Below, piece after piece: positions 9,557-51,943 of a stretch of 64,000 nucleotides of DNA. Location: IMG/VR virus record IMGVR_UViG_3300032280_000361; one strand, written 5' to 3'. Both the position numbers and the translations under genes were made by a program. Position 1 is the first letter of the stretch. Every line of letters begins with the position of its first letter. The notes under the pieces are model-generated. The model saw only the letters and a list, made by a program, of their open reading frames with translations. It was not told the origin of the DNA and did no database searches. This stretch comes from a virus (taxonomy: Duplodnaviria; Heunggongvirae; Uroviricota; Caudoviricetes).

Positions 9557-10213
9557 TTATTTATTATACTGAACATTGAAAAGTAATGCGAATCGATTAA
9601 CATCTTCTACCACTTCACTAACCATATGAAATGGGTCTGATTCTCCACTAAAATTAAGGAATACAATATCCGCAAAAGATGGTATCACTTTATCATCTTC
9701 AACAACGAATAATCCACCATATTCCTCTTTATAATCTTTATTGAGATAGATAAGTACATTAGAGGGTTTCTGTTGTCTGAATTCTTTATATCCATCAGGC
9801 TTACCATCTTTATGACCACCTAATTTACAACCTTTTGTATAAAGTGTTAGTAATGGTTTTCCTGCAAATAATGTATGTCTTTTTTGGCATTGCTCTTTGA
9901 ATAACTCAAATGATTTATCTATTATCCATTTATATGTGTTAGGGTAATCACTCCAATCTAATTCACCTCCATTTAAGCACAATTGACCTAATTTACGATT
10001 AGAATCATCCGAATACCATTCCGTAATCATATTCACATATGATTTAGCTTTTTGGTGTGATTCATGTATTTCCATTCCACCGAAATGACCAGCACCTCTA
10101 TGTATGGTTTTAGTATAGTTTTCTATCTGAGTTGATAAGTGGTATATCTCATCCAATTCTCCCTTTAAATGATTTATATCATATAAGTTCTCTTTATAGT
10201 ATGCACCTTCCAT
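9557..10213 (-). CDS. 2OG-Fe(II) oxygenase-like (cupin) protein
   Basis: HKDG (HxD) ..GGLFVV.. FHMVSEV..NRFALLF (distal His, Arg) pattern. Confidence 0.4.
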   Translation of the reverse strand: MEGAYYKENLYDINHLKGELDEIYHLSTQIENYTKTIHRGAGHFGGMEIHESHQKAKSYVNMITEWYSDDSNRKLGQLCLNGGELDWSDYPNTYKWIIDKSFELFKEQCQKRHTLFAGKPLLTLYTKGCKLGGHKDGKPDGYKEFRQQKPSNVLIYLNKDYKEEYGGLFVVEDDKVIPSFADIVFLNFSGESDPFHMVSEVVEDVNRFALLFNVQYNK

Positions 10214-11896: not shown

Positions 11897-11906
11897 AAAT
11901 TAAATT

Positions 11907-12284
11907 GGTGGAGGTGGAGGGAGTCGAACCCTCGTCCAAATACGGATTTAATAAACCTCATTCACAAGCTTAGTTTGTTTTTCTTAACAAACAAAATATT
12001 CGGTTGGTTCTTCACCATCGGCAACCGATAAACAATAGGTGATTCGATTTCGGGTTCAATCACTTTTCCACCTTGGTACACATTCTATTTTATATCCCAC
12101 GATGTGTGCGGGAGAGATTAGGCTGCTACAGCGTAATCAGCACCAACGAATGCCATTGCATCTTCGAAGGTCATTGTAGATAATTCTACGTCGTTTATTG
12201 TTCGATAGGTATTTAAGGATTTCCATCTAACCCTGCTTGCATCAACGTACTAACTCATCGTACCTGTCAAAACCAGGCACCCCC
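11907..12284 (-). ncRNA. ssrA: tmRNA (ssrA)
   Basis: 5' GGGGGUG pairs 3' CACCUCC-ACCA; T-arm GAGGGUUCGACUCCCUC; internal tag frame ...AFVGADYAVAA-TAA; ~378 nt. Confidence 0.75.
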
Positions 12285-13900: not shown

Positions 13901-14929
13901 TTATTCTCTAATTGTATCTAAGGTTACACAATGAGGGCCACCACTAAACGTTCTAGCGTGCCTCATTTTAACGGGTATAGAATCTACCCCATACTTCTTT
14001 AATTCTTTCATAAGAGGGATTTGTCTTTCCTCTACTATCATTGTATTCTCATCGTAGGATAAGGTGTTCATTCCCAACCAGGGTGATGCTTCTGCCCAAT
14101 GTTCTAAACAATTTGTTTCCACCATCTCAGGAGAGTATATAACATCCCACGATTGAAAGATTTTAGGTAGGTTGGTACTATTTACCCTTTTAGGATTAAC
14201 TAAGACCAAACCCTCTCTAATGAGTACAAAAGTGGTATCAATATGAATGAACGCATACACATCTTCTATTGGATGTACATTATACGTTTCTTTCATATTA
14301 TCATCCAACCATTTTTGAAGATACTCTGCGCCGGCTCTATTACCGGTATTGGAAATTAGGAATAGTATATCGTTATTACACTTAAGGATATTAGCCGCAT
14401 CAAATACGGGTTCATCGTTCCTTAATGTTGGAGCAGGTAATAAACCCCTATCGTATATTGAATCTAATAATTTCGGTTTGGGAAAATCTACCCAATGTGT
14501 TTCATCGAATAGATGTTTAAATGCTCTCGTTTCATTTTGTCTTTGGCGGAGAGCCATAGGAGTAGCAATAACTTTATCTTCTATAACTAACATAGAATCT
14601 CTAGGGCAGTAACCATAGTATCCATCTACTTCCCAATTTTCAGTTGAATACTTCTCACTCCAATCTATCAGAGAAGGTCTATGTACTTTAACACCCAACC
14701 CTTCTAATGTAATCGATAGGTTATCTAAATCCTCTTTCGTTTCCTCAATCATCCAATTAGGATAAGTTCCATATGGTATCTTACGAAATTGGTCATCTGT
14801 ATAATTAGCATAATCAATTGTATGTAATGATTTATCTCTTATAGTAGGAATCTGAGCAAACTCCGGTCTACCAACTATTATCTCTTTTAGTTTCCCCCAC
14901 TCATTTCGTATGTAAGGTTTGATACTCAT
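13901..14929 (-). CDS. amidinotransferase / guanidino-group modifying enzyme superfamily protein
   Basis: C-terminal catalytic-Cys motif FSGGPHCVTLDTIRE, like GGxHC of amidinotransferases/deiminases. Confidence 0.55.
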   Translation of the reverse strand: MSIKPYIRNEWGKLKEIIVGRPEFAQIPTIRDKSLHTIDYANYTDDQFRKIPYGTYPNWMIEETKEDLDNLSITLEGLGVKVHRPSLIDWSEKYSTENWEVDGYYGYCPRDSMLVIEDKVIATPMALRQRQNETRAFKHLFDETHWVDFPKPKLLDSIYDRGLLPAPTLRNDEPVFDAANILKCNNDILFLISNTGNRAGAEYLQKWLDDNMKETYNVHPIEDVYAFIHIDTTFVLIREGLVLVNPKRVNSTNLPKIFQSWDVIYSPEMVETNCLEHWAEASPWLGMNTLSYDENTMIVEERQIPLMKELKKYGVDSIPVKMRHARTFSGGPHCVTLDTIRE

Positions 14930-14930
14930 A

Positions 14931-15500
14931 TTAATCTATAAATGCTGCATTAGCATCTCTTTTGGATAACGTAGGAGTTTTAGTAGGCCAATCTATCCCC
15001 AACTTAGGGTCATCCCATCTAGCCGTCTTTTGTTTCGTATCATCATTGTATTCACCTTCGTATGCCATTTTATATGTGAAAAGAGAATCATCTGTTAGAA
15101 CGTAATGTCCATTTGCAAACATCGGAGGGCAAAGTATCTGTATTTGAGTTTGAGGAGACATTATAAATGTTTCTGATTTTAGATATGTTTCTGATTCGGG
15201 TCTCATATCAACTAATACGGTGTACAATGAACCTAATGGACAACTTAATAATTTCCAAGTCTTATCATCATAATGTAATCCCCTTAATACGCCCTTATAT
15301 GATTGTGAATATCTATCGTGCTTAAATTGTAAATCAGGTGGTAATACCTTTGGGAAATAATCCGAATGAAATGTAGTCCATATAGAACCTCTAAATTCGT
15401 GATAAACTGAATTGGATATAATTTTTACATCCGTTAAAACCTTACCACTATTAACATGAAATTCATCCCAATTTTGGTTTTTGTAAAATAACTTTTCCAT
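14931..15500 (-). CDS. RmlC-like cupin (dTDP-sugar 3,5-epimerase family)
   Basis: HEFRGSIWTTF, GVLRGLHYD, KLLSCPLGSLYTVLVDMR, PPMFANGHYVLTDDSLFTYKMAYEGEY match RmlC blocks. Confidence 0.6.
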   Translation of the reverse strand: MEKLFYKNQNWDEFHVNSGKVLTDVKIISNSVYHEFRGSIWTTFHSDYFPKVLPPDLQFKHDRYSQSYKGVLRGLHYDDKTWKLLSCPLGSLYTVLVDMRPESETYLKSETFIMSPQTQIQILCPPMFANGHYVLTDDSLFTYKMAYEGEYNDDTKQKTARWDDPKLGIDWPTKTPTLSKRDANAAFID

Positions 15501-16159
15501 TATATTAAATTTTGTTTGTTTTTATCAATCCTAACTCTTCTATATGGCGATAATATCCATTCCATATAGTTAGATTCAACCATCTCCATATCTAGATATC
15601 TAAATAACTCTTCGATATGTTTTCTACTTTTTTCTAAAAATATATCTTCATAGTAGAATATAGGAAATTTTTGTTTAAATGATATAGTATGTAGAATTTC
15701 ACTTGATTTAGTATATCTATCAATCATTGTTTTGATATAAGATGGTTCTATTTTTTCAATATCATAAATCTTAGGTGTATGCCATCCAGTACCTTTTTCT
15801 CGCATAGATGTTTCATTTACTGCAAAACTTTCCGATTGAGCAAGTTTATCTTTTCTATCTAGTATAATTATTTTATCAAAATAAGAATAACACCAATTTA
15901 AGTATTCATATATGTCATTAAAAGATTTAATTGGATATTCTTCGTGCCCTAATAAAAATAAACTTTTAACCAATACATTATTATATTTGGTAACATATAA
16001 AATGGTATCTCTATCTTCATCATATTCTTTATTTGGATATAGGCTTTGATTAAATGGTTCTATAAACATTTGATAGTTTGATAATTTTATATGAGAATCA
16101 ATAAATTTTACTAATGAAGTTGAACCACTTCTAGGTGTACCTAATAATAATATTTTCAT
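15500..16159 (-). CDS. PAPS-dependent sulfotransferase
   Basis: 5'-PSB-like LLLGTPRSGSTSL; 3'-PB-like RKDKLAQSES. Confidence 0.55.
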   Translation of the reverse strand: MKILLLGTPRSGSTSLVKFIDSHIKLSNYQMFIEPFNQSLYPNKEYDEDRDTILYVTKYNNVLVKSLFLLGHEEYPIKSFNDIYEYLNWCYSYFDKIIILDRKDKLAQSESFAVNETSMREKGTGWHTPKIYDIEKIEPSYIKTMIDRYTKSSEILHTISFKQKFPIFYYEDIFLEKSRKHIEELFRYLDMEMVESNYMEWILSPYRRVRIDKNKQNLI

Positions 16160-16674
16160 AAAAGTGTAGAAGGATTCATTCTAAATTTATGTATGAACAT
16201 TGCTACCGCCCACCTCTCTCCCTTTGTTATCGGAGTAACTTGATGTGGTGTCTGAGATTGATATATACACACATTACCTATCTTTTTATCGATTACAATA
16301 GGTTCATCATTTTCATCGAATATTAAATAATCACCACCTTCAAAATCTTCGTTTAATATAATACCAACATTCCATTCCTTTATGGGAGTACCAGTATCGA
16401 TGTGTTTACCAAATTCATCACCCCCTGTATAATGATGTAAATTTAGTTTAGTAGGTTTTACAAAAATATTCAACCCTATTTGAGATTCAAAAAAATCACA
16501 CAATCTTTTAATCACCCAATCTATATCAGAGGCATACTCTAATGTATAAAATTTGTATCTAAAATCATCAAACTCTTCCCACCTACCATTTTCACCTAAT
16601 AGAGGATATTTGTTTTTTAACCCAATAATATAATCACACTCTTCTTTAGTGAATAAGATTGATTGAGATAACAT
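16156..16674 (-). CDS. 2OG-Fe(II) oxygenase, prolyl-4-hydroxylase-like
   Basis: KHIDTG (HxD) ... TPHQVTPITKGERWAVAMF (H..R.A..F). Confidence 0.65.
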   Translation of the reverse strand: MLSQSILFTKEECDYIIGLKNKYPLLGENGRWEEFDDFRYKFYTLEYASDIDWVIKRLCDFFESQIGLNIFVKPTKLNLHHYTGGDEFGKHIDTGTPIKEWNVGIILNEDFEGGDYLIFDENDEPIVIDKKIGNVCIYQSQTPHQVTPITKGERWAVAMFIHKFRMNPSTLL

Positions 16675-16829
16675 ATATTACGATAAGTGTTTAGCCTTAA
16701 TTCTGTTTACTACTTCTAAAACTGCTCCAGCAACTTTAGTTTTTACTTCAGTTGTTAGTGGAGCTATTAAGCTAGTAATTGTTTGATTAGGTCGTTCTAT
16801 TTTTATTTTTGTTGCCATATTTTTATAAT

Positions 16830-18320
16830 TTATCTTTTTGCTACTCTAAAATTATTACAGTTTGGACAATAATTTGAGTTACAATAGTATCCACAATATA
16901 TCCAAGGACACCAACAACTATTGTGCATTATACCAAAGAGCCCATCCCCCACATCAACTAAGAATAGGTCAGATGGTTCGAAATCTAATGCATATATTGT
17001 TTTGTGAGCGTACTCCATTTCTAATCCCGTAACTAATTCAGCAGTTAGTTCGTTAGTAGTAGGGTCAATTAAAACTAATTTATCACCTACCATCATTTTG
17101 TTTACTTTATCCCATCTAGTTGATATAGAACCCGATTCTTCAAAGTAATATGTACAAGATGGAGCATCTGACCAAGTTGTTCCGTTTTCTAATGTAATCC
17201 TAATATAAATTGTTTCAACCGATGCAGATAATATTGCATTTAAACTAGATGAAACATTCGTTAAACTTGCACTAGTGTGTTGAAGTGTACCATCCCAACC
17301 TAATAATGTTAGGTTTCTATCACCGGTTGGAGATGTTCCATTCAAATCGGTAAAATCAATTGATTTAATGTAATCGCCTAATTGAAGAGTATCAACATCT
17401 TTTAAAGAGCCGGTATAATCTAAAATCATAGAATCATCATCGGTGTGGTAATCTATAGATGTTTCCCTACCTACAGGTTTATTAATGTATTTAAATTTAG
17501 TTTTTACATTTAATTTTTTACTACCACTTACAAATTCATTTTCAAAAAAATCTAATGGAACTATACTAGAATTTTTATACCCACCCATATGAATAGTATC
17601 AAGTTCCGAACCGTAAATTATATCAACGCTTCTTATTACATTCCATCTACCATTTAATATATTTGCTTCATCATATACAAATTCTTGCATCAAATTATTA
17701 TCGGTTTCTAAAATTTCCGATTTTAATTGATTCAATTCTTCCTCATTTGATAGTGAATATAAAGCAGGTAATTCTTCCTGATTATATACTGGATATCTAT
17801 GTTTTACTAAAACATTTGGATGTAAACTATTACTGTAATCTACAGAACCCATTGTATCAAAATTTATTTCAGCAGTTTCAAAATATGTTTTTGGAATATA
17901 TTCTGAAGTATGCATTAAATTAAAAAATTCAAACTTATCCGCACAATATGATTCATCTACTAATGCAGTTGTATCATATGATTGTCTTAAAATAAATCGA
18001 GTTGGTCTATCTTCTATATATGGAACTGTAATTGAATTATTAGGTACTACATATTGAAAATATTCTATACCTATTGATTCACATCGTTCTTTTATAATAT
18101 CTTCAAATCTATATGATTCTCCTAATGGAACGTGCGTATCACCCTCAGTATAAATAAAGTGGAACTCTGTTATATTATTATCCACTAAAACATCAAATAA
18201 TACATCATAATCCAACATATCAGCGCCCGCGTTGTATATGGTGGTATTAGTGTTAATTTCTAAAATCTTAACTGAACCGCTTTGTTCTAGTAAATCAGTA
18301 CCTATAATCGTTCCTTTCAT
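16830..18320 (-). CDS. hypothetical protein with Cys/Trp/Tyr/Pro-rich C-terminal 35 aa
   Basis: 496 aa; C-terminus HNSCWCPWIYCGYYCNSNYCPNCNNFRVAKR (8 Cys, 2 Trp, 5 Tyr, 2 Pro). Confidence 0.5.
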   Translation of the reverse strand: MKGTIIGTDLLEQSGSVKILEINTNTTIYNAGADMLDYDVLFDVLVDNNITEFHFIYTEGDTHVPLGESYRFEDIIKERCESIGIEYFQYVVPNNSITVPYIEDRPTRFILRQSYDTTALVDESYCADKFEFFNLMHTSEYIPKTYFETAEINFDTMGSVDYSNSLHPNVLVKHRYPVYNQEELPALYSLSNEEELNQLKSEILETDNNLMQEFVYDEANILNGRWNVIRSVDIIYGSELDTIHMGGYKNSSIVPLDFFENEFVSGSKKLNVKTKFKYINKPVGRETSIDYHTDDDSMILDYTGSLKDVDTLQLGDYIKSIDFTDLNGTSPTGDRNLTLLGWDGTLQHTSASLTNVSSSLNAILSASVETIYIRITLENGTTWSDAPSCTYYFEESGSISTRWDKVNKMMVGDKLVLIDPTTNELTAELVTGLEMEYAHKTIYALDFEPSDLFLVDVGDGLFGIMHNSCWCPWIYCGYYCNSNYCPNCNNFRVAKR

Positions 18321-18347
18321 ACTTTGGTATTTATATATCTATATATA

Positions 18348-18653
18348 TTATAGAATGGTTTTTTTATGTTTAATTCCTATATAAGTATTGTATTTTTTAT
18401 CAATCTCGTCCCATTTTTCCAATGGACATGGGTTGATTTTTCCTGAGAATATCTTCTTATCTATTGGACAGCCACATCCATTACAATATGCAGACCATTT
18501 CTTTTTTTCAAATAGTTCAACATAATTTTCACATTTAGGTATATCACCATTCCCCCTACATACTAAAGCCCTGTCTTCAGATTGTTGCTTTTGTTCATAT
18601 GTAGGATTAGCCGATGTAACCCATGCATCAAATACTTCTCTAAAATTGAACAT
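18348..18653 (-). CDS. small Cys-rich protein
   Basis: 101 aa with CRGNGDIPKCENY...YCNGCGCPID...NPCPLEKW. Confidence 0.45.
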   Translation of the reverse strand: MFNFREVFDAWVTSANPTYEQKQQSEDRALVCRGNGDIPKCENYVELFEKKKWSAYCNGCGCPIDKKIFSGKINPCPLEKWDEIDKKYNTYIGIKHKKTIL

Positions 18654-18654
18654 C

Positions 18655-19380
18655 TTATAATAATGTTTTTATTGATTTTGGGAAATCATAGTAATCATAA
18701 ATAGAATCGTATAATTTTATAAAATCATCGTTTAACTCTAAATTACATTTAAAATGTTGACTACCATTTGTTCTTTCTAACTTAAAAGGTTTATTAATTT
18801 TATTAGATACCCAGTCTTCCATCTCATCCAATTTTTCAAAATCAAACCATATTATATCCGAATCATGCATATGCCAATATGATGTAGGTGTGTATAGTAT
18901 ATCAAAAATATTTAAACCATAAAAATGGTCAACCGGTAAATCTAATCTTTGTAAAAATTGTGATATCATTTTAAATCTTTTAGATTTAGATATTATATCA
19001 ACGGAATTAAAAAATAGTATTTCTTCTAATGTTAGGTTTATTAATTTGTTATAAATATCTATTTCACCTATCCTAAAAAACTCGTGAATAGTATGTTTAA
19101 ATAATGATATAAATCTTTCATGTCGATTTCTTTTTACGGATATCACATCATACCCATTTCCAAACTTTTTCTTTAATTTATGCAGTTCTTCATGTCCATG
19201 CATTATAACATCCATTAACCTATCATTTTCTACTTTACTTATATCAATATCTGCATTTAAAGTATTCCATTCAGATTCTCCATTTTCAACACCAATGCCA
19301 TTCTTTAAACAAGACCAATGAAATGAAGATGATGCACATCTTGGCAATGCAATGTATATGAATTTTTTATCAATTAGCAT
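18655..19380 (-). CDS. sulfotransferase-like protein
   Basis: YIALPRCASSSF (PKSGTT-like 5'-PSB), KRNRHERFISLF (3'-PB-like). Confidence 0.45.
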   Translation of the reverse strand: MLIDKKFIYIALPRCASSSFHWSCLKNGIGVENGESEWNTLNADIDISKVENDRLMDVIMHGHEELHKLKKKFGNGYDVISVKRNRHERFISLFKHTIHEFFRIGEIDIYNKLINLTLEEILFFNSVDIISKSKRFKMISQFLQRLDLPVDHFYGLNIFDILYTPTSYWHMHDSDIIWFDFEKLDEMEDWVSNKINKPFKLERTNGSQHFKCNLELNDDFIKLYDSIYDYYDFPKSIKTLL

Positions 19381-20021
19381 TATATTAAACTCTTTTCTTT
19401 TTTAATTAAATCAAACCCAACATTACCTGCAAATACGATTCTATCCTTAGTTGATTTGTAAGAGGAAGCGGGTACATGTGGTACTCCAGATTCCATAATT
19501 ATCACATCATTTTCTTGCGGAAGAATATGGTATATCTCTTTATTTCTTCCTTCTATATACAACACACCATCATTACCCTCTAAGTTATCAGGCATCTGTA
19601 TGTAATGAACGTATGTATATGTAGGAACGAACATTTTGTTTAATTCGTTTAAGTAAATGTGATTATGGAATTCTATCTCATTTGATTTTTTAAAATTATG
19701 CTGTTTTGGATTAATTGCCCTAACAACATTCACCCACGCATCTGTGTTGACCTTATTATATGGGATATCAGTAGTATCAAATAATTCAATACATCTATCT
19801 ACACCAAACTTAGCTATAAAATCTAATTTAGCCTTAGGTATAATTTCTCCAGTAAAATTTAAATCATTCCATTCTCTAAGGTATCCAAAATTATCACCTG
19901 GTACGTCTCCCAATGATTCCATTACCTGAAAGCATTCATCTAAGACACCATCTTTAAAGTCTGATATATCAAATTTAGTTCTCCATATATAAGTTTCATC
20001 ATCAAAGTATATCTTTTCCAT
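19380..20021 (-). CDS. cupin/2OG-oxygenase-like hypothetical protein
   Basis: FHNHIYLNE ... GVPHVPASS..DRIVFAGN; weak HxD/E...H...R pattern. Confidence 0.35.
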   Translation of the reverse strand: MEKIYFDDETYIWRTKFDISDFKDGVLDECFQVMESLGDVPGDNFGYLREWNDLNFTGEIIPKAKLDFIAKFGVDRCIELFDTTDIPYNKVNTDAWVNVVRAINPKQHNFKKSNEIEFHNHIYLNELNKMFVPTYTYVHYIQMPDNLEGNDGVLYIEGRNKEIYHILPQENDVIIMESGVPHVPASSYKSTKDRIVFAGNVGFDLIKKEKSLI

Positions 20022-20022
20022 A

Positions 20023-21267
20023 TTATATCAATTCTTTTTTTAATACCTTTTTATTTTTTCTAAAAATAGTAGAGTAGTTATTTACAAAAAATGTCAATTC
20101 ATTTGGGGAGACTTCTTCTAACTCCAATGCCTTAACTAATTCCACATTAGTTTTAGGTATTAGAAAATTATTCTCATCCAATATGTTTTTTAATTTAGTA
20201 GGAATCGGCATCTTTACACAATCTTTCCAAAATGGAGTATCATCTCTTTCGGCTAGATAGTGATATCGGATGAAACATAAATTTTGTTCATTTATCTCAT
20301 AACACCATTTATTATATCTTTCTTTCAACTCCTCATTAAATTCTAAATCAATTAATCTTTTTAACTGCATTATAGTTGACATCAAAGCAGTTGCTTCCAA
20401 TGGTTCAATAAATCCATATGATAAACCTATTGATATTGAATTACCTATCCAACTTCTCTTATGTGTTCCAGGTTTAAAATCAAACACCTTCTGTAGTGTT
20501 ATTTCTTTGCCTACATAATCCTCTATTTCCTTCTTAGCATCCTCTAGTGAAATATAATTATCGTTGAATGCATATCCACATCCCCATCTATGTTGAAGTG
20601 GTATTCTAAACATCCACCCACTATCCATCGATATAACTTCTGTGAAGGTTTTATCACCAAACTCAATCTCATCTTCCTGTGGCAGAAAATACCCAAATGC
20701 TTTATTTAATAAAAGATATTTTGAATAATCAACCCACTCTTCATTATGAACTTTATCTATTATAATTCTAGCAAAACCACTACAATCAAATACAAAATCC
20801 AAATCAATAATACCACCATCTTTTAATTCTAAATTAACTATAGTTTCACCATTATTATTAATATGGATAACTTCATCATCTATACATTTAACTCCTCTAT
20901 CTGTAGCAATTTCTTTGAAGTATTTAGCAACCAATCTCGCATCGAAATGATATGCGTATTGATTGGTAAACTGATTTGGTTCATCACCGGTAAATAGGTG
21001 TCGCATCAACTCATTTTTACCCGTCCAATTATATAAATCTAATCCACCTTTTAAAGTAGAACCTGTGTTCTCAAAGAATTCCTTTTGATTAATTCCCAAT
21101 AGAGCTAACATTCTACCGAAGTTAGGAGTACCACCTTCACCCGCCCCCAATATCCCTATTTTAGAACTTTCTATTAGGGTAACCTCTGTATCTTCCCAAA
21201 ATTTATTAACTACTAAAGCAGTTAACCACGCAGAAGCACCACCCCCAATTATAACAATTTTTTTCAT
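20023..21267 (-). CDS. flavin-dependent halogenase (tryptophan halogenase family)
   Basis: IIGGGASAW FAD motif, IESSKIGILGAGEGGTPNF, signature GWMFRIPLQHRWGCGYAF (GWxWxIP). Confidence 0.8.
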   Translation of the reverse strand: MKKIVIIGGGASAWLTALVVNKFWEDTEVTLIESSKIGILGAGEGGTPNFGRMLALLGINQKEFFENTGSTLKGGLDLYNWTGKNELMRHLFTGDEPNQFTNQYAYHFDARLVAKYFKEIATDRGVKCIDDEVIHINNNGETIVNLELKDGGIIDLDFVFDCSGFARIIIDKVHNEEWVDYSKYLLLNKAFGYFLPQEDEIEFGDKTFTEVISMDSGWMFRIPLQHRWGCGYAFNDNYISLEDAKKEIEDYVGKEITLQKVFDFKPGTHKRSWIGNSISIGLSYGFIEPLEATALMSTIMQLKRLIDLEFNEELKERYNKWCYEINEQNLCFIRYHYLAERDDTPFWKDCVKMPIPTKLKNILDENNFLIPKTNVELVKALELEEVSPNELTFFVNNYSTIFRKNKKVLKKELI

Positions 21268-21836
21268 AGTAATCCTTTTTTAATTTTAGAAGACGGCCAT
21301 GCATTCATAGAATATCTAATACCGGATTCTACTACGTTAACATTATGTTCTATATTAGAATCAAATATAAAAATACTACCTGCTTTTTTAGGAACGTTAT
21401 ATTCTATATCACTTACTTTGTACATAACTTCCCCACCTTCATAATTATTGTTTAGTTGAATTATTATAGTAGCAGTTGCACCATTCATTATTTCATGTGT
21501 ATCTGGATGCCAATTTAAAAAATCTCCCTCACTATATTGATTAAATGTATATTTTGGTATAGAGATATATTCTATACCATTAAAAATTTTAATAGAATTA
21601 ACCAATGATATTAATTTATGAGTTAGATTTACAAACATATTCTCTTTCATTTCATCTTCAAAGAAATAACTACCCCTTCGTTTATTATCATCTAATTTTA
21701 ATATATTATCATCTAGAATTTTACCATTAACTATTTTGCTAGAGTACATAACCTGTAAGTCGCTCTGTAATCCCCTTTGAATTAAAAGTTCACATTCATC
21801 TTTACTTAATACATCTTCTATTAATAGTGTAAACAT
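21264..21836 (-). CDS. 2OG-Fe(II) oxygenase
   Basis: WHPDTHE (HxD), HNVNVVESGIRYSMNAW (H...R.S). Confidence 0.6.
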   Translation of the reverse strand: MFTLLIEDVLSKDECELLIQRGLQSDLQVMYSSKIVNGKILDDNILKLDDNKRRGSYFFEDEMKENMFVNLTHKLISLVNSIKIFNGIEYISIPKYTFNQYSEGDFLNWHPDTHEIMNGATATIIIQLNNNYEGGEVMYKVSDIEYNVPKKAGSIFIFDSNIEHNVNVVESGIRYSMNAWPSSKIKKGLL

Positions 21837-21837
21837 A

Positions 21838-22305
21838 TTATATTAATGTTTTTTTAAAATCTTCTTCTTTAATAATATTAACACTACTTGCTATAGTGTA
21901 TTTCATTCCGTTTTCAACCGGTGTAGTTCTATTTTTTATGTTTGAAAAATATACAACTAAGTTACCTGCACCATGAGGTAATTGAAAATATTTATCACCA
22001 TCATCTATTAGAAATTGAAATCTACCTCTGAAATAATCTTCATTTAATTGTATTAAAAATGAAATATATGTTTCTTCATCTGACACCCATTCCGGATTAC
22101 TATTTTCACTAGTGTGTACGTTAAACTTAAAAGGAGATATATTTGATAGCCTATATCCTTTAAGAGTTATAAAATCGGTTACATATTTAGTTAACCTATC
22201 ATATACAATGCCACTATCTAAGACATCTCCTTTTATAATAAGAGGTAGAGTATCTTCACATTCTTTCTTTGTTAAAAAATTTTCTATAACTACGATTCTA
22301 TCCAT
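21838..22305 (-). CDS. hypothetical protein (possible cupin)
   Basis: 155-aa ORF, stop/start overlap TAATATG with next gene. Confidence 0.4.
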   Translation of the reverse strand: MDRIVVIENFLTKKECEDTLPLIIKGDVLDSGIVYDRLTKYVTDFITLKGYRLSNISPFKFNVHTSENSNPEWVSDEETYISFLIQLNEDYFRGRFQFLIDDGDKYFQLPHGAGNLVVYFSNIKNRTTPVENGMKYTIASSVNIIKEEDFKKTLI

Positions 22306-22515
22306 TTATTTCTTTAATCCGTATTTAATCCATTTATACCAAACTCTTTCGTGAATATAGTATTGTATGGGTTTGTAAATCAATTCTGCTACTCCAAATG
22401 CGGCTCCAACTTTAATTGAACCACTTATCAACCACATTAATAAGAATCCAATTACGGTACTTAAAATACGATATGAGATAGTTTTTGCAATGTGTCTCTT
22501 CCTTTCTACTATCAT
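22306..22515 (-). CDS. small membrane protein
   Basis: 69 aa, two hydrophobic helices. Confidence 0.4.
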   Translation of the reverse strand: MIVERKRHIAKTISYRILSTVIGFLLMWLISGSIKVGAAFGVAELIYKPIQYYIHERVWYKWIKYGLKK

Positions 22516-23120
22516 ATTAATGATTTTTTAATATTATCTTTTTGGAAATCAGTTCCATTGAATATTGTGTATTTTAATTCATATTCATTTCTCCATTTTC
22601 TGGTATTCGCGTATGGTAATATTTTCTTTTCTTCATCTGTTATAAGGTGTCGATAACCACTTATTCTCACATCTACTACATGTAAGGCAAACAACCCAAT
22701 AATAGTACCAACCTTAGAATTTGGTTTTGCTAACTCTAATAGTTTAGGTATATTATCATCCCAATGAGTATCATGCAATATCCCATCAAATTTTTGGTCT
22801 AATGTAGGTAATATATCAACCCAATCTCCTAATATTATCTTAGTGTTGGGTTTATTTTTAGCCCATAATAAAGCAATACGGTATATCTCAGGATGAACTT
22901 CTATGATTGTGTGAGATGTAACATTAGGATTAGATTGAATTGCATCCGCAGATATATGCATACCAAACCCTAATTCTAAAATATCTCCTCCATTTTTAGT
23001 AACTATTTCAGCTAGTTTATTCATTAAGGATGTCTCACCTCTGTGCATAACAGCCTCACCTTCTCTTCCTACTATTCTGATTTCATCCGATGAAAATATT
23101 AGTTTTTCTGTTCCATTCAT
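22512..23120 (-). CDS. class I SAM-methyltransferase-like protein
   Basis: GGDILELGFGMHIS (motif I-like), acidic residue after beta2 (TIIEVHPE). Confidence 0.45.
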   Translation of the reverse strand: MNGTEKLIFSSDEIRIVGREGEAVMHRGETSLMNKLAEIVTKNGGDILELGFGMHISADAIQSNPNVTSHTIIEVHPEIYRIALLWAKNKPNTKIILGDWVDILPTLDQKFDGILHDTHWDDNIPKLLELAKPNSKVGTIIGLFALHVVDVRISGYRHLITDEEKKILPYANTRKWRNEYELKYTIFNGTDFQKDNIKKSLI

Positions 23121-23497
23121 TATCCTTTAGTTTTATCATAAGTAATCGTTCCATCCGGTGTCATATGACCTGTTCTGATAGCAGTTCCGCTAATTACTGC
23201 TACATCGGTTGGTGGTTCGTGATAGATTACATCGTACCCTACTCCTCTACCATAGTTTACACTTTCAATATCTGGTATAATTGATAATAGAATCTTATCA
23301 AACTTATCTGTAAAGAATGGTTCGTTTGATAATTCTTTTAAAACTTGTTGTGCGGGTTTAGGATTGTTCTCATCTAATGGAACATCTCTAATTGCCACCC
23401 AAACATTTTTACCTTTTTCTAATTGTTGGTTTATTAACCATTCATGTCCTTTGTGCCAATTCTGCCATCTTCCGATGTACATTGCATACTTTTTCAT
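23120..23497 (-). CDS. cytidylyltransferase-family nucleotidyltransferase (minimal, 125 aa)
   Basis: YIGRWQNWHKGHEWLI (HxGH) and ISGTAIRTG (ISxTxxR) motifs. Confidence 0.65.
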   Translation of the reverse strand: MKKYAMYIGRWQNWHKGHEWLINQQLEKGKNVWVAIRDVPLDENNPKPAQQVLKELSNEPFFTDKFDKILLSIIPDIESVNYGRGVGYDVIYHEPPTDVAVISGTAIRTGHMTPDGTITYDKTKG

Positions 23498-24082
23498 TTA
23501 TAACAAATTTTTATTTTCTATAATAGCCTGTTTTGGTAAGGGTAATACAATCGACCACCTATCACCATTATGTATTTCTCTAATTTCATGTTCAATCTTA
23601 CAATTATATGCCAATGCAGTACCAATCTCCTTTGATATAATTATCTCCTTTCCCATATAATCCCAACACACATATTCACCACCTTCATAATTATCGTTTA
23701 ATTGTATCCCTAAATTATATCTTCTATCAGGATGTAGTGGTGATAAATCTATATGTTTATTAAATTTATCTCCCTTTATATAATGATGTAAACCCGTATC
23801 TATCATTTTTACATCTGTATTAATCTGAACTCCACTTTTAGATTCAAACCAATTTATTAATTTATCAAACATCCATTCAGTATCATCATTATTTGGTATG
23901 CTGTAAAAATTATAAGAAAAAGAAGTACGGTGTGTTAATCTATTTCCATCTATAGTTATATCACCGTTTTTAATGAACTTACCATCTCTGTTAAATTTAT
24001 CTTCTATTATAGGATATAAGTTTGAATATTCTATAATTTTATTACACTCATCTTTTGAGAAAATTCTTTCTTGCCAAATCAT
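23498..24082 (-). CDS. 2OG-Fe(II) oxygenase, P4H-like
   Basis: KHIDLSP (HxD), KIEHEIREIHNGDRWSIVLPL (H...R.S). Confidence 0.65.
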   Translation of the reverse strand: MIWQERIFSKDECNKIIEYSNLYPIIEDKFNRDGKFIKNGDITIDGNRLTHRTSFSYNFYSIPNNDDTEWMFDKLINWFESKSGVQINTDVKMIDTGLHHYIKGDKFNKHIDLSPLHPDRRYNLGIQLNDNYEGGEYVCWDYMGKEIIISKEIGTALAYNCKIEHEIREIHNGDRWSIVLPLPKQAIIENKNLL

Positions 24083-24522
24083 AAATCTAATTTTTGTAAT
24101 AATTTTCTATACGATTGAAATTCGTTATCAATTGTCGTATCACAATCTATAAAATTTTCAATCGGTGGTTGATATCCTTCTACAAAGAACTGCTCTCTTC
24201 CTCTCTCTTTGGTTGTATGAACGTATATTTCTTTTATATTATCATTACCTATCAATTCCTTAAATGAATCCCTTTGGTCTTTATATGGGGAAACTAATGA
24301 TACTAATGCAAACCCTCCTTTATTATGTATGAAGTGTGAAAGATGTTGAGCCAATTCTACATTCTTTCTACGACCCACCTCTGAGTAATCTTTGTTATTG
24401 AAGATTTGTCTTATATCATCTCCATCTACAATCATAGGATGTAAAGAATGAAGATGAGTATATAACATTTTTACTAAGGTTGTTTTACCTGCTCCTGGCT
24501 GACCCGTTAACCAATAAATCAT
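24079..24522 (-). CDS. cysC: adenylyl-sulfate (APS) kinase
   Basis: IYWLTGQPGAGKTTL P-loop, IVDGDDIRQIF, LVSLVSPYKDQRD match APS kinase blocks. Confidence 0.85.
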   Translation of the reverse strand: MIYWLTGQPGAGKTTLVKMLYTHLHSLHPMIVDGDDIRQIFNNKDYSEVGRRKNVELAQHLSHFIHNKGGFALVSLVSPYKDQRDSFKELIGNDNIKEIYVHTTKERGREQFFVEGYQPPIENFIDCDTTIDNEFQSYRKLLQKLDL

Positions 24523-25646
24523 TTGTATATGTATTTTACTATTTTCTTACTTTGATTATGCTGTACATTACTATATTCCATAACATTATGTATATACTCT
24601 TTCAAATACTTTCGTTGTACATCATTATACCATTCCATATCGTTATTCAGTATAGTTTCTAAATGGTTCATAAATTCCTCCCCTTCTCCAAAAAAATATA
24701 TAGGGGAATTAAATGTAAATCCCATTTTTTCTAATGCATATTTAACTTCTTTTTTTCCATAATATACAAAAGGATTTCCAGATTTTAGAGCCTTACATAT
24801 TTTCTCTGATGTGTATGCACCATTCATTTTTAATAAGTGTTGAGTCTCTGTTATTATTTCAAAAAAGGATTCAAAATATATTCTATAATTCATAGGAACT
24901 GTACCAATATGATTAATACCTAATATTTTCTTTTTCTGTTGTTCTACTTCACTAATCTTAGATAATCCCGGATAGGTATCATAGTACATAGGATATTTAA
25001 TACCACACTCTTCACATTGTTTTAAAAAAGATTCTTCTGATTCTATACCGAAATGTATATCATTAAAATCTATTAAATTAAAAGATATGTTACCTTCCGA
25101 TTGTTTATTATTCTTATGAATTAATTTAAGTATTTCAAATCTAATAGGAGAGAAGTGATTATTAAGAAACATAAATTTTTTCTTTATTGTCCCTAAATCT
25201 GCACGCTTAATTATATCCAATGCATGTACGAATTCCACTTCACAATTTTCGGTTACCCATTGATTAGGATTGTAAAAAATAAAACCATCTTTACCTAAAT
25301 AATTTATATCATTGGTTAAAAAAATTAAAGGTTTGTTATGAAGAAGGGTTTTGTAAAAATTTATAATACCATTTGTATTTTTGCTTTCTTCTATCGCAAA
25401 GTTTATTATAAATCGTATATCAGAATTAAAATCATATATAGATTCTATCTTATCTCTTAGCCTATTAACTAATATTTGATTATTATAATCAAACGAATCC
25501 ATAGATTTACTGATTTCTATTAATTTTACATTTTTATCAAATGGAGTATTCGTACTAAATCCTCTTGGTAAATAAAATACCAATCCACCATCTCTGATTT
25601 CAGTTTCACCATTATTGAATATGTATAAAGCTGTTAAACCAATCAT
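24519..25646 (-). CDS. hypothetical protein
   Basis: 375-aa ORF overlapping both neighbours by 4 nt (operon). Confidence 0.45.
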   Translation of the reverse strand: MIGLTALYIFNNGETEIRDGGLVFYLPRGFSTNTPFDKNVKLIEISKSMDSFDYNNQILVNRLRDKIESIYDFNSDIRFIINFAIEESKNTNGIINFYKTLLHNKPLIFLTNDINYLGKDGFIFYNPNQWVTENCEVEFVHALDIIKRADLGTIKKKFMFLNNHFSPIRFEILKLIHKNNKQSEGNISFNLIDFNDIHFGIESEESFLKQCEECGIKYPMYYDTYPGLSKISEVEQQKKKILGINHIGTVPMNYRIYFESFFEIITETQHLLKMNGAYTSEKICKALKSGNPFVYYGKKEVKYALEKMGFTFNSPIYFFGEGEEFMNHLETILNNDMEWYNDVQRKYLKEYIHNVMEYSNVQHNQSKKIVKYIYK

Positions 25647-26521
25647 ATTATATCTTTTTGTACCATATTAAAAATCGATTCACCAAAATATTCATGTCCC
25701 TCTAAACTATAATGTAAATTTTCTATACCAACATCTTTTAATGTGTAAGTGTTCTCTTCTATACGTTTGGTATCATTCATAGGTAATACATTATTAAGTA
25801 TCTTATCATATCCAAACTCCATTCCACTTGCCATTCTATGTGCAATTGAGTAAGATTCAAACCCATTCATTTGCATTAATTGATTGTATGCCATTAAGTT
25901 ATTTAAGTTCTCATATTGAACTAAATAATCAGTCATTACAAAATTAGTAAAGTATGAAAAGAATGTATGGAATTTTTCCGAATCAATTGGTATATCATTG
26001 TGTTTAAGCCAATCCTCTACTATGTTAACTTGATTCATACCAGGATTAAGAGAATGTACCAAACTCTTATAAGTCATATCTGCTCTAAACGAACCACTCC
26101 ATTGAGTTATACACAAAGGATTTTTATAATTTTTTAAAAGAGATTTATCATACTTCTTATAAATTCTTTTATTGGGTTCTAAAAATACCCAATTATCTTC
26201 TCCAACTTTATAATCATATATGAAATATGGATTAACTTTAGGCTCTATACCAGAAATATAATACCATCTACGCAGAATAGATTTATTAGATGAACCACTC
26301 TTAGATATGTTTAAAAGTGGAACACCCAATAATTCTGCTATTTTTAATCCCCAACTAAAAGACCTATCTAAAAATACTTCGTTATTGGAATGCTTTTTTA
26401 ATTCCAACCAATAATCGTAGTACTTACATTCTTCTTTGTATGTATCAAATTGTCTATATAACCCATTACCTTCGGAAAATGAATCTCCGTTGATAATTAC
26501 TAAATCATATTTCATGTTCAA
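25643..26521 (-). CDS. SGNH/GDSL-like hydrolase (paralog 2 of 4)
   Basis: N-terminal VIINGDSFSEGNG block. Confidence 0.45.
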   Translation of the reverse strand: MNMKYDLVIINGDSFSEGNGLYRQFDTYKEECKYYDYWLELKKHSNNEVFLDRSFSWGLKIAELLGVPLLNISKSGSSNKSILRRWYYISGIEPKVNPYFIYDYKVGEDNWVFLEPNKRIYKKYDKSLLKNYKNPLCITQWSGSFRADMTYKSLVHSLNPGMNQVNIVEDWLKHNDIPIDSEKFHTFFSYFTNFVMTDYLVQYENLNNLMAYNQLMQMNGFESYSIAHRMASGMEFGYDKILNNVLPMNDTKRIEENTYTLKDVGIENLHYSLEGHEYFGESIFNMVQKDII

Positions 26522-42601: not shown

Positions 42602-42602
42602 A

Positions 42603-51803: not shown

Positions 51804-51943
51804 ACTCTATGTAGTTTAATCCATTCTAAAGAGAAAGATAATAAAGACCAGGGTGCAGGGTATCCTCTATACTCTTTGCCTTTGGCTATTATTGTTATCG
51901 ATGTGGGTTGCCACCTACCTAACTGATTTATTTCTTTTTCCAT
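51800..51943 (-). CDS. small ORF (47 aa, not in ORF track)
   Basis: MEKEINQLGRWQ...; ATG preceded by conserved GATAAACGATAAACTATG context; ATGA overlap with next gene. Confidence 0.3.
   Translation of the reverse strand: MEKEINQLGRWQPTSITIIAKGKEYRGYPAPWSLLSFSLEWIKLHRV

Follow-up and report, generated by a model that had tools for sequence, protein, structure and literature searches.

In the window, the 64,000-nt stretch of tailed-phage DNA analysed here (IMG/VR record IMGVR_UViG_3300032280_000361), positions 13901–26521 hold 20 co-directional, overlapping genes: 19 minus-strand ORFs of at least 69 aa and a conserved 46-aa ORF, most of them joined by start/stop overlaps of 1–4 nt, which confirms the dense packing described in a sequence-only reading of the same DNA (Table 1). 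Because gene order is kept in more than 50 IMG/VR contigs, the clustering of the block genes is not due to chance. Profile-HMM, PDB and fold comparisons support a Trp-halogenase-family enzyme, five 2OG-Fe(II) oxygenases, two sulfotransferases, an APS kinase, a small HxGH nucleotidyltransferase, a StrB1/AGAT-type amidinotransferase, an RmlC-like cupin and a GAMT-family methyltransferase. These searches largely uphold the earlier enzyme calls, which did not cover the 496-aa, 101-aa, 46-aa and DUF2061 proteins.

Table 1. Features of the block and one related gene outside it (all on the minus strand)
Position	Feature	C-terminus	Basis
13901–14929	StrB1/AGAT-type amidinotransferase, accessory gene	untagged	PDB 1bwd, 1.3e-82
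14931–15500	RmlC-like cupin, accessory gene	untagged	PF00908, 5.7e-38
15500–16159	Sulfotransferase-like protein, 219 aa	tagged, …KQNLI	family-level match
16156–16674	2OG-Fe(II) oxygenase	tagged, …PSTLL	PF13640, 4.3e-11
16678–16818	46-aa protein, universal partner of the ATP-grasp gene	untagged, …IKAKHLS	
16830–18320	Core gene, 496 aa: ATP-grasp-like ligase, Hint domain, Cys-rich tail		
16833–16919	29-aa tail SCWCPWIYCGYYCNSNYCPNCNNFRVAKR, candidate core peptide		conservation, composition, covariation with enzymes
16920–17432	Hint (intein-like) domain, residues 297–467		
17433–18320	ATP-grasp-like amidoligase domain, residues 1–296, probably circularly permuted		
18348–18653	101-aa Cys-motif protein (CxxC…CxxCxCP…C), zinc-type	tagged, …KKTIL	alignment, 26 homologues
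18655–19380	Sulfotransferase, 241 aa	tagged, …IKTLL	
19380–20021	Divergent 2OG oxygenase, HxH…H…R motif	tagged, …EKSLI	family-level PF13640
20023–21267	Short flavin-dependent halogenase, 414 aa	tagged, …KKELI	PF04820, 9e-87
21264–21836	P4H-type 2OG-Fe(II) oxygenase	tagged, …KKGLL	PF13640, 1.2e-11
21838–22305	2OG-oxygenase-like protein (weak)	tagged, …KKTLI	PF13640, E 0.047
22306–22515	DUF2061 small membrane protein	untagged	PF09834, 1.1e-16
22512–23120	GAMT-family (guanidino-group) methyltransferase	tagged, …KKSLI	PDB guanidinoacetate N-methyltransferase, 7e-16
23120–23497	Minimal HxGH nucleotidyltransferase	untagged	TIGR00125, 1.6e-4
23498–24082	2OG-Fe(II) oxygenase	tagged, …NKNLL	PF13640, 6.8e-9
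24079–24522	Short APS kinase, 147 aa	untagged	PF01583, 9.8e-18; 65 bits vs cut-off 21
24519–25646	375-aa protein	untagged	no matches in HMM or PDB searches
25643–26521	292-aa protein, GDS motif, putative SGNH hydrolase	…QKDII	
58557–59264	Third sulfotransferase, outside the block	tagged, …NKELI	PF03567 (Sulfotransfer_2), 2e-7, above cut-off

The halogenase assignment stands, with matches to PrnA (4e-55) and VirX1 (4e-48); the protein retains the catalytic Lys and the EPLE Glu, has WMFRIP in place of WxWxIP and is ~120 aa shorter than characterised enzymes. Its start is overlapped by the gene for the P4H-type oxygenase at 21264–21836. Loci that have the halogenase also have an orthologue of this oxygenase, loci that lack one lack the other, and HTVC008M carries the same pair. 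Four or more oxygenases with an HxD…H…R motif had been proposed. For three of them (16156–16674, 21264–21836 and 23498–24082) the 2OG-FeII_Oxy_3 matches exceed the curated cut-off; the family of 19380–20021 matches PF13640 in 24 of 27 homologues and has H119, H121, H182 and R194 invariant, its metal motif being HxH instead of HxD, and the call at 21838–22305 is weak. Of two sulfotransferases and a third at a distance, the distant one exceeds its profile cut-off; the 219-aa protein is a putative sulfotransferase at family level only, with Sulfotransfer_1/3 matches in 4 of 14 homologues (best 3.6e-5) and an invariant R-S-G-S loop. In structure comparison the sulfotransferase most resembles carbohydrate sulfotransferases, which counts against a peptide substrate. 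What had been called a SAM methyltransferase-like protein can be refined to the guanidinoacetate N-methyltransferase family.

The proposed PAPS supply is half shown: the APS kinase, though short, clears its curated cut-off, and no ATP sulfurylase was identified. The HxGH protein can be placed in the cytidylyl/adenylyltransferase superfamily only; it aligns with a PHROG "kinase" family over that family's C-terminal half (6e-8) and is extremely conserved (3201 homologue clusters, 83–90% identity), and the DUF2061 protein is 78–93% identical across most loci. Both the cupin and the amidinotransferase were correctly named, the latter aligning with StrB1 over its full length, catalytic-Cys motif included, and matching SxtG (2.5e-50) and AGAT (~1e-43). 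An RmlC-like gene also lies near the conserved gene triad described below in the distant loci L066 and L067. The SGNH hydrolase call is putative, as the GDS motif alone is visible and neither HMM nor PDB searches gave a match; homologues of this gene and of its 375-aa neighbour are confined to close relatives.

At the centre of the block lies a triad formed by the 101-aa Cys-motif protein, the 496-aa core protein and the 46-aa protein, a set shared by more than 50 viral contigs. Its synteny with the enzymes extends over more than 50 loci and to relatives below 50% identity, and the triad is always embedded among enzymes, deeply divergent relatives included. The gene for the 101-aa protein always lies directly upstream of the core gene; 51 loci have it, as do the distant relatives L065 and L066. 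The 46-aa protein is conserved in 54 loci and is under amino-acid constraint; its gene also follows the ATP-grasp gene in distant relatives and a stand-alone ATP-grasp gene in L068.

A second feature, also missed in the sequence-only reading, unites the block. Among 222 members of 11 tailoring families, 218 end in the C-terminal tag K-x-[L/I]-[I/L]-COOH, against none of 107 members of seven other (supply or core) families from the same operons; a family carries it in ~100% of its members or in 0%. The tag is coded with synonymous and non-adjacent codons inside families. It is retained in the distant locus L065, is absent from cyanophage and HTVC008M homologues, and is restricted to the lineage with the ATP-grasp–Hint protein. 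Tagged families in relatives include radical SAM enzymes, some with a SPASM domain, a domain that typifies peptide maturases.

The Hint domain of the core protein has the fold of mini-inteins. Pfam profiles miss it, and in sequence-profile comparison with inteins block A alone registers (E 0.09). On sequence grounds it is a fixed feature of the core-protein family; among 326 clusters at 50% identity there is no Hint-less form that joins ATP-grasp to tail. The terminal H466-N467 is invariant, residue 297 is Ser or Thr throughout, the +1 residue after Asn467 varies (S/T/A/G/Q/P/N/D), and no block-B His is invariant; for these reasons the predicted junction chemistry fits cleavage. In distant relatives the region past His-Asn is hypervariable: it spans 5 to ~170 aa and can contain 12 or more Cys. 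Four relatives have a further Hint domain that brackets the Cys peptide and that Pfam detects in P0361 and P0367 (PT-HINT 1e-12, Intein_splicing 1e-15) and weakly in P0362. In other relatives the tail is nearly lost (RCAYK) or absent, and a stand-alone ATP-grasp gene with a 40-aa gene, lacking Hint and tail, also exists, so the ATP-grasp domain has a function of its own, apart from Hint and tail; these forms count against a precursor role.

The tail itself has eight invariant positions (six Cys, one Trp and one Gly) and is 22% Cys; compared with the remainder of the core protein, Trp is enriched 14-fold and Pro 3-fold, and Tyr is also abundant. Its AF2 model is of low confidence (pLDDT <50). 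In halogenase-positive loci the tail reads CWC-P-W (18 of 18), and in halogenase-negative loci CWC-[S/T/G]-[W/Y] (9 of 9), with two independent losses on the tree. Likewise, R-[F/V]-A-K occurs in three of four methyltransferase-positive loci vs none of 19 negative loci. Tail Pro thus appears to co-vary with the halogenase and tail Arg with the methyltransferase, each on the strength of about two independent events. The six invariant Cys could instead constitute a structural zinc-binding module that remains attached, which counts against a peptide product.

What is the substrate of this enzyme set? We propose, at about even odds (~0.5) and from wholly computational evidence, that the block encodes a RiPP-like pathway of the phage with a self-cleaving precursor. 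Folds and families, synteny, the distribution of the tag and the conservation of junction and tail were computed directly; from these we infer the tail as substrate, its release, a binding partner for the tag, roles for the ATP-grasp domain and the 46-aa protein, and a purpose for the product.

It is improbable, in our estimation, that the block instead makes a small-molecule secondary metabolite, its enzymes tailoring a free aminocyclitol, sugar, guanidino compound or organohalogen. Although the amidinotransferase has StrB1, an enzyme acting on inosamine phosphate, as its nearest match, also resembles SxtG and is accompanied by GAMT-family and RmlC-like enzymes (amidinotransferase plus GAMT being the logic of the creatine pathway), the amidinotransferase occurs in 2, the RmlC-like gene in ~5 and the methyltransferase in ~7 of ~60 related loci, while the remaining block is conserved. 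The parallel with guanidino alkaloids (saxitoxin and cylindrospermopsin) drawn in the sequence-only reading is weak because amidinotransferase and cupin are rare accessory genes without the tag that unites the other enzymes. Secondary metabolites or an organohalogen have been suggested for phage clusters (Iyer et al. 2010, PMC2938197), and VirX1, the only characterised viral halogenase, acts on free small aromatic molecules in vitro (PMC8407142), whereas the substrate proposed here is a peptide tail. Profile and PDB searches found no PKS, NRPS, terpene or sugar-nucleotide synthase in the block that could build a scaffold, and a small-molecule product leaves both the triad and the tail–enzyme covariation unexplained. 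Modification of a glycan, for instance host envelope polysaccharide, or of structural proteins such as those of the virion, with the ATP-grasp–Hint protein unrelated, we regard as quite unlikely: no structural genes, glycosyltransferases or collagen-like ORFs lie within or adjoining the block, the triad stays among the enzymes even at deep divergence, tail residues follow enzyme content, and the tag is confined to the ATP-grasp–Hint lineage.

Could the Hint domain be an ordinary splicing intein whose excision leaves an ATP-grasp enzyme ending in a zinc knuckle, set in a loose auxiliary island whose enzymes share no substrate? The mini-intein fold, Ser/Thr at position 1 and the terminal His-Asn are intein hallmarks, the Cys pattern ending CPxC resembles a zinc knuckle, and marine phages are known for amassing 2OG oxygenase genes in variable regions. 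Yet +1 is a non-nucleophile (A/G/Q/P/N/D) in many members, no intein-free allele exists in the 326 clusters, there is neither a homing endonuclease nor an invariant block-B His, and the supposed extein behind the Hint domain varies extremely in both length and sequence; the common tag and the conservation of gene order likewise oppose a random island, and we hold this reading to be highly improbable. Alternatively, the tag might simply reflect the overlap of start and stop signals, or it might direct degradation or localisation independently of the ATP-grasp–Hint protein. Basic-then-hydrophobic C-termini are known ClpX recognition signals, as in MuA, and could serve as a protease degron, and ATA encodes the final residue in 77% of tagged endings with Ile vs 47% internally, as fits ATGA/TAATG overlaps. 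However, untagged genes of the same operon are coupled equally tightly, Ser at position −3 is coded by both TCN and AGY within one gene family, and the 101-aa family retains the tag with the next ATG 27–54 nt away. Judged by codon usage and spacing, an overlap by-product is unlikely, as is this alternative as a whole.

Finally, the RiPP-like reading has precedents. The enzyme combination is not unprecedented: halogenase homologues are present in 87 GenBank phage records, cyanophage arrays that combine 2OG dioxygenases and Trp halogenases have been described, and so have bacterial operons in which dioxygenase, sulfotransferase and PAPS synthetase genes accompany candidate protein substrates; the same study predicted peptide or protein substrates for operons of dioxygenase, halogenase, sulfotransferase and PAPS synthetase (Iyer et al. 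2010, PMC2938197). In borosin precursors the modifying enzyme is fused to its own core peptide (PMC7878506). The conotoxin-like modified peptide of the sequence-only reading is partly borne out, in that a Cys/Trp/Tyr/Pro-rich tail with two positions co-varying with enzymes lies behind a Hint domain in mid-operon. We propose that this 29-aa tail would be decorated by a changeable set of P4H-type 2OG oxygenases, short flavin halogenase, sulfotransferases and guanidino-methyltransferase, joined in relatives by radical-SAM/SPASM enzymes, with the C-terminal tag docking the tailoring enzymes onto a common partner. PAPS would come from the APS kinase, possibly aided by the adjacent small nucleotidyltransferase and the DUF2061 protein. 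The Hint domain would then free the phage peptide through cyclisation of the terminal Asn467, a C-terminal cleavage rather than protein splicing that would resemble the action of pretoxin-HINT/BIL domains.

What might the enzyme-rich block of this window make? It holds 19 ORFs and a 46-aa ORF, all co-directional and most joined by stop/start overlap. Most of the enzymes named in the sequence-only reading are confirmed: the Trp-halogenase family member (PF04820, 9e-87), the RmlC-like cupin (6e-38), the APS kinase (PF01583, 1e-17), the amidinotransferase (StrB1, 1e-82 over the full length; SxtG, 2.5e-50; AGAT, ~1e-43) and, away from the block, a third sulfotransferase. At least four 2OG oxygenases had been claimed, and we find three of P4H type that pass the curated cut-off, another with weak similarity, and a divergent family that is identified through its homologues only. 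The "SAM MTase-like" protein can be refined to the guanidinoacetate-N-methyltransferase family (7e-16). Other assignments hold at a general level: the 219-aa protein is a sulfotransferase at family level only, and the 125-aa HxGH protein belongs to the adenylyl/cytidylyltransferase superfamily, with nothing more specific. PDB searches returned nothing for the 375-aa protein or for the 292-aa protein that had been taken for an SGNH hydrolase. The view of this enzyme combination as atypical for phages was overstated, since phage 2OG dioxygenase/halogenase arrays and bacterial dioxygenase/sulfotransferase operons are known (Iyer et al. 2010, PMC2938197). Among the products suggested earlier, a modified peptide gains support and a guanidino alkaloid does not. 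We propose, with a probability of about 0.5, that the block encodes a RiPP-like pathway in which the substrate is the Cys-rich tail of a 496-aa protein, the tailoring enzymes bear a shared C-terminal tag, and a Hint domain releases the product.

The 496-aa protein consists of an ATP-grasp-like domain (residues 1-296), a Hint domain (297-467) and a 29-aa Cys-rich tail; both folds were recognised. Residue numbers are those of the full protein, and are one lower in alignment A1 of its relatives and in the model, which omit Met1. Within the ATP-grasp domain E21-x-N23 and many charged residues are invariant and may include the nucleotide- and Mg-binding residues. The location of this E-x-N at 21-23, together with a weak match between the N-terminus of one relative and the late part of the RimK model, suggests that the domain may be circularly permuted. 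The Hint domain opens at residue 297 with a Ser or Thr in 61 of 61 aligned members, where an intein block-A-like pattern begins, and closes with an invariant His466-Asn467. The +1 residue after Asn467 is free to vary (S, T, A, G, Q, P, N or D) and is not confined to the Cys, Ser or Thr of canonical inteins. Likewise, the block B Thr-x-x-His was not found at the inferred equivalent position, H466 being the sole invariant His in 297-467. Both the variable +1 residue and the missing block-B His count against splicing of the canonical kind. C-terminal cleavage, in which the Asn cyclises, is compatible with the retained His-Asn. From +2 the tail follows the fixed pattern C-W-C-x-x-x-x-C-G-x-x-C-x-x-x-x-C-x-x-C. 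It is 22% Cys, is enriched 14-fold in Trp and 3-fold in Pro over the remainder of the protein, and is almost devoid of acidic residues.

Pfam has no match, PT-HINT included, to the 496-aa protein or to the first Hint domain of its relatives, the window's own being too divergent for any Pfam Hint model. A local hhalign comparison of the Hint region with mini-inteins aligned block A only (E 0.09) and served only to set the register. A BFVD viral fold search gave matches through the Hint domain only, with the whole architecture in no viral protein, and tblastn of the 496-aa protein and a 646-aa protein found no match among GenBank phages.

An exhaustive profile search collected the relatives into 326 clusters at 50% identity, in which nearly all full-length members span ATP-grasp and Hint. 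In distant relatives residues 1-467 align and the part after His-Asn is hypervariable in both length (5 to ~170 aa) and sequence; some of these tails have 65-66 residues, and one contains twelve Cys. Four relatives carry a second Hint domain beyond a Cys-rich peptide of ~27-35 residues, leaving this peptide between two predicted self-processing domains. Pfam recognises this second domain in P0361 and P0367 (PT-HINT, 1e-12; Intein_splicing, 1e-15) and weakly in P0362; PT-HINT membership was found only in P0361, P0367 and P0490, each time for the second Hint domain. The relatives P0478, P0490 and P0496 carry two or three BIL/PT-HINT-type domains in tandem after the first Hint domain, with linkers of 2-6 residues (e.g., YE, RPMIGV, AP, RS), an odd arrangement that leaves almost no "extein" between self-processing domains.

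Is the Hint domain a mobile element? Across the 326 clusters we found neither a direct joint between ATP-grasp and Cys tail nor an intein-free allele, all full-length members carrying Hint. The sole Hint-less form is a two-gene unit of ATP-grasp and a 40-aa protein, present on two contigs, where the tail is absent too. Since the direct joint is missing and the only Hint-less form is this two-gene unit, the Hint domain is, on the evidence of these alignments, a fixed and functional part of the 496-aa family and not a mobile intein. At loci L068 and L069 a stand-alone 291-aa ATP-grasp protein ending ...SSKLI precedes a 40-aa protein ending ...RIKIRHLS, a minimal form that lacks Hint domain, tail and Zn protein. 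ATP-grasp domain plus small protein looks like the ancestral pair. The 46-aa ORF was considered as a precursor peptide and rejected: it is conserved instead of variable, contains no Cys, and also occurs beside the Hint-less ATP-grasp gene. Its product is more likely a partner of the ATP-grasp ligase.

The same gene order recurs in 53 IMG/VR loci and in distant relatives. It begins with the 46-aa gene, the ATP-grasp-Hint gene and the 101-aa Cys-motif gene (the triad) and one or two sulfotransferases, and continues with the HxH oxygenase, a variable enzyme set, DUF2061, the nucleotidyltransferase and the APS kinase. An encoded candidate precursor with a variable core is clustered with tailoring enzymes, as in RiPP loci. 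A halogenase with an overlapping 2OG partner occurs in about half of the related loci; only the closest relatives have the genes for the amidinotransferase, RmlC, the methyltransferase and the 375-aa and 292-aa proteins. The amidinotransferase matches 1bwd (1.3e-82, residues 7-341), aligning GGPHCVTLD with GGFHCATLD at the catalytic-Cys motif. Together with RmlC it appears to form an accessory module of its own that was acquired recently. RmlC-like genes lie near the triad again in loci L066 and L067, including a relative without halogenase or 2OG genes nearby; the cupin may not be an accessory by mere chance.

The tailoring enzymes share a C-terminal tag, K-x-[L/I]-[I/L]-COOH. It ends 12 of the 19 ORFs in 15500-26515, compared with ~8 of 101 elsewhere in the window (Fisher p = 4e-7). 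Among related loci the tag is present in 218 of the 222 members of eleven families (two sulfotransferase, five oxygenase, halogenase, methyltransferase, 101-aa and 292-aa) and in none of 107 members of the ATP-grasp-Hint, DUF2061, nucleotidyltransferase, APS kinase, RmlC, amidinotransferase and 375-aa families. Further families of these loci are each wholly tagged or wholly untagged; among the tagged ones are two families of radical-SAM enzymes, of which one has a SPASM domain, more 2OG oxygenases and a cupin. The tag is kept in the distant two-Hint locus L065, and the HTVC008M and P-SSM2 halogenases and oxygenases do not have it. Three observations make it unlikely that the tag is a by-product of gene overlap or of a ribosome-binding site: Ser at tag position −3 is encoded by both TCN and AGY codons within families, the 101-aa family keeps the tag though the next start is 27-54 nt off, and untagged genes in equally tight coupling have no such ending. 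These observations indicate that the tag is a feature of the proteins themselves. Four proteins outside the block that end in tag-like residues have no Pfam match and may also belong to the tagged group. The window also encodes a 142-aa protein with nine Cys that begins MRECGECGKCCDG, ends ...QKIV and has no Pfam match.

Does the tail vary with the enzymes? The tail reads C-W-C-P-W in 18 of 18 halogenase-positive loci and C-W-C-[S/T/G]-[W/Y] in nine of nine demonstrably without halogenase, which was lost in two independent events on a tree of the 496-aa protein minus its tail. Similarly, R-[F/V]-A-K near the tail end is found in three of four loci with a GAMT-family methyltransferase and likewise in the window, but in none of 19 loci without the enzyme; the methyltransferase-positive loci fall in two clades. 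With roughly two independent events in each case, the covariation is suggestive only.

Positions of the features discussed, in the window unless a related locus is named
Feature	Position	Strand	Observation
2OG-Fe(II) oxygenase outside the block	9557-10213	-	PF13640, 2e-6
tmRNA gene	11906-12284	-	RF00023 (Rfam), 101 bits, cut-off 47
526-aa protein	12287-13867	-	PF01555, E 0.0012
Block	13901-26521	-	
RmlC-like cupin	14931-15500		
46-aa protein	16678-16818		
496-aa protein	16830-18320	-	
101-aa Cys-motif protein	18348-18653		
Sulfotransferase next to the 101-aa gene	18655-19380		
HxH oxygenase	19380-20021	-	alignment A3
DUF2061 protein	22306-22515	-	
Nucleotidyltransferase	23120-23497	-	
Tag-like protein	37297-37884	-	ends ...ALELI
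Small ORFs with repeated start region	40375-42935	-	
142-aa protein	43002-43430	-	
Tag-like protein	44792-45517	-	ends ...QKTLI
Small ORFs with repeated start region	50892-51943	-	
Tag-like protein	57917-58555	-	ends ...GSDII
Third sulfotransferase	58557-59264		PF03567, 2e-7
Tag-like protein	62189-62548	-	ends ...VKELI
GroEL-like gene	62623-63924	-	
RmlC-like cupin, L066	12688-13230		
RmlC-like cupin, L067	3405-3947		
ATP-grasp and 40-aa protein, L068	1036-2050		
ATP-grasp and 40-aa protein, L069	99-1113		

The halogenase matches PrnA (4e-55), RebH and VirX1 (4e-48) among solved structures; its tlKgg aligns with afKaa at the catalytic Lys (PrnA K79), and its EPLEAT with EPLEST at the Glu (PrnA E346). 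The WxWxIP motif and C-terminal substrate-binding module of Trp halogenases were not found in it. Its motif is GWMFRIP, with Phe for the second Trp; it has 414 aa against ~530, alignments end at about residue 350-370, and ~65 aa after residue 86 are missing. The motif, short length and missing substrate module together indicate a family member that is not a typical free-Trp halogenase. The three P4H-type genes contain HxD...H...R and score 37-46 bits against a PF13640 cut-off of 27; the fourth 2OG family is recognised at family level but has HxH, and the fifth is weak (E 0.047). In the HxH oxygenase family an invariant His-x-His replaces the usual His-x-Asp/Glu and is accompanied by a distal His and an Arg, suggesting a three-His metal site and possibly different chemistry. 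The further 2OG-Fe(II) oxygenase outside the block is untagged.

The sulfotransferase next to the 101-aa gene has the expected fold, with P13, R14, S17, T18 and the R84...S92 pair (R-x7-S spacing) invariant in 58 homologues. These residues would form the 5'-phosphosulfate loop and the 3'-phosphate Arg...Ser pair, as these PAPS-binding motifs are defined in SULT structures. When the alignments of the 241-aa and 213-aa families were run as profiles against the PDB, the only matches were spurious (designed repeat proteins and a marginal zeta-toxin). The APS kinase scores 65 bits against a PF01583 cut-off of 21 and has the P-loop GQPGAGKTT; its match covers model positions 4-116 of 152, the C-terminal lid region being shortened. 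The gene cysC is on a list of genes from large freshwater phages. Of the claimed PAPS supply, then, the kinase was found, and no ATP sulfurylase (Sat or CysDN homologue) was recognised in the block. The 125-aa nucleotidyltransferase was weighed as a minimal ATP sulfurylase and set aside, the only support for it being its position beside the APS kinase and one PHROG family that fuses a kinase with this domain. A scan of genome contigs with the nucleotidyltransferase found no relative. The DUF2061 and nucleotidyltransferase genes are mostly 71-93% identical between loci, against only 45-60% for neighbouring genes, and the nucleotidyltransferase family spans >3200 metagenome clusters on contigs up to 351 kb.

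What genome carries the block? The window has a G+C content of ~30-36% and ~120 ORFs, nearly all on the minus strand, and also encodes a PhoH-like protein, a phage endonuclease and a phage-type GroEL (PHROG 5725, 9e-130). The GroEL-like gene is 61% identical to metagenomic phage genes, including one from the 735-kb "megaphage" record LR756501, a similarity that fits a very large phage genome. Within the 64 kb we found neither cellular housekeeping genes nor virion genes; megablast of the block against GenBank phages gave no match, with no close GenBank phage, and related IMG/VR contigs reach 334 kb. An identical copy of the halogenase protein is recorded from a contig of 0.2-1 Mb. We infer that the genome is most likely that of a large uncultured phage. 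A full-length tmRNA gene, with the tag peptide ...GADYAVAA predicted by ARAGORN, lies just downstream of the block. Between the two is a gene for a 526-aa protein, conserved in the closest relatives only, with a weak C-terminal DNA-methylase match. Elsewhere, two regions hold small ORFs, each followed by a near-identical start region (...ATGATTAAG..., encoding MIK...), which suggests a tandem paralogue family or a repeated start cassette. A promoter and terminator scan gave counts below shuffled expectation and was hence uninformative.

Cyanophages such as Syn9, P-SSM2 and S-PM2 carry 2OG dioxygenase arrays with Trp halogenases (Iyer et al. 2010, PMC2938197). The window is like them in placing a phage-borne flavin halogenase beside P4H-type or phytanoyl-CoA-type 2OG oxygenases; identity between its halogenase and the homologues in 87 phage records is 29-35%, and it has the 2OG-halogenase gene pair in common with HTVC008M. 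The cyanophage genes, however, lack the tag, and the ATP-grasp-Hint protein is in no GenBank phage. VirX1 of cyanophage Syn10 (PDB 6QGM) is the sole viral halogenase to have been characterised, with natural substrate unknown (PMC8407142); it has 531 aa and WxWxIP, whereas the 414-aa window enzyme has WxFxIP and has lost most of the C-terminal substrate module. Bacterial operons combine dioxygenases, sulfotransferases, PAPS synthetase and methyltransferases with candidate protein substrates, with a predicted logic of hydroxylation followed by sulfation (Iyer et al. 2010, PMC2938197). The block has similar ingredients, with hydroxylases, sulfotransferases, methyltransferases and PAPS supply encoded alongside a candidate substrate. 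Tail-collar or collagen-like proteins are the substrates proposed for those operons, whose PAPS synthetase is complete; here the candidate is a Cys-rich tail behind Hint, and APS kinase only is recognisable.

As in pretoxin-HINT and BIL proteins, Hint directly precedes a hypervariable C-terminal module thought to be released. The differences are that a peptide of 25-35 aa takes the place of a toxin domain as the predicted released part, that an enzyme-like ATP-grasp domain stands at the N-terminus where those proteins have a secretion or trafficking module, and that the downstream 46-aa gene is conserved and does not co-vary as an immunity gene would. In borosins (omphalotin/OphMA) the core peptide is the C-terminal tail of the modifying-enzyme protein (PMC7878506). 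The candidate core peptide is similarly fused behind an enzyme domain here, but that domain is an ATP-grasp ligase and not an N-methyltransferase, the tailoring enzymes are many and separate, and release would be by the built-in Hint and not by a separate peptidase. Some ATP-grasp enzymes work with a small partner protein (RimK with S6, LysX/ArgX with LysW); in comparison with these, the best fold matches of the ATP-grasp domain here are GshA/YgiC/GspS-type ligases, and the small protein ends ...KHLS instead of in an acidic tail. Finally, a ~30-residue Cys-rich peptide with Trp, Tyr and Pro, encoded with a halogenase, sulfotransferases and prolyl-hydroxylase-type enzymes, recalls the conotoxins and their bromo-Trp, sulfo-Tyr and hydroxy-Pro; this is a chemical analogy only, between a phage and an animal secretory pathway, and the modifications here are hypothetical.

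Other explanations bear on different parts of the locus. The product could be a free small molecule, as the guanidino-alkaloid parallel would have had it, or the target could be a glycan or virion protein. The Hint fold could also belong to an ordinary splicing intein inside an island of unrelated genes, and the shared C-terminus could be a degron. Each of these four fits the conservation of the triad, the tag and the pattern at the junctions less well than tailoring of the tail does. We favour the tail as substrate: its hydroxylation, halogenation, sulfation and methylation would fall to the tagged enzymes, the APS kinase would back sulfation, and the Hint domain would set the product free.

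The locus is a variation on known systems, and two of its features may be new in kind. A bolder proposal, which we put forward tentatively and consider rather doubtful, is of a new organisation: the peptide would be built as the tail of an ATP-grasp and Hint carrier that is self-cut later, and the enzymes, not the substrate, would bear the recognition element, a five-residue tag. The tag would recruit interchangeable oxygenases, halogenase, sulfotransferases, methyltransferase and radical-SAM enzymes to the carrier. The literature searched contained no description of the ATP-grasp-Hint-tail architecture, the triad or the enzyme tag, which is not proof of novelty because subscription journals lay outside its scope. 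If the proposal were true, the leader-peptide logic of known RiPP systems would be inverted in a widespread lineage of large aquatic phages.

Ever since the earliest cyanophage genomes, it has been puzzling that phages of marine and fresh waters carry so many genes for 2OG oxygenases and halogenases. The locus offers a testable candidate substrate in the same operon, with a built-in means of release and a tag that picks out participating enzymes genome-wide. If confirmed, it would mean that large phages make heavily modified Cys-rich peptides, and Hint self-cleavage would join the known release routes of ribosomal natural products. A portable tag-and-carrier system of this kind would also be of interest for peptide engineering.
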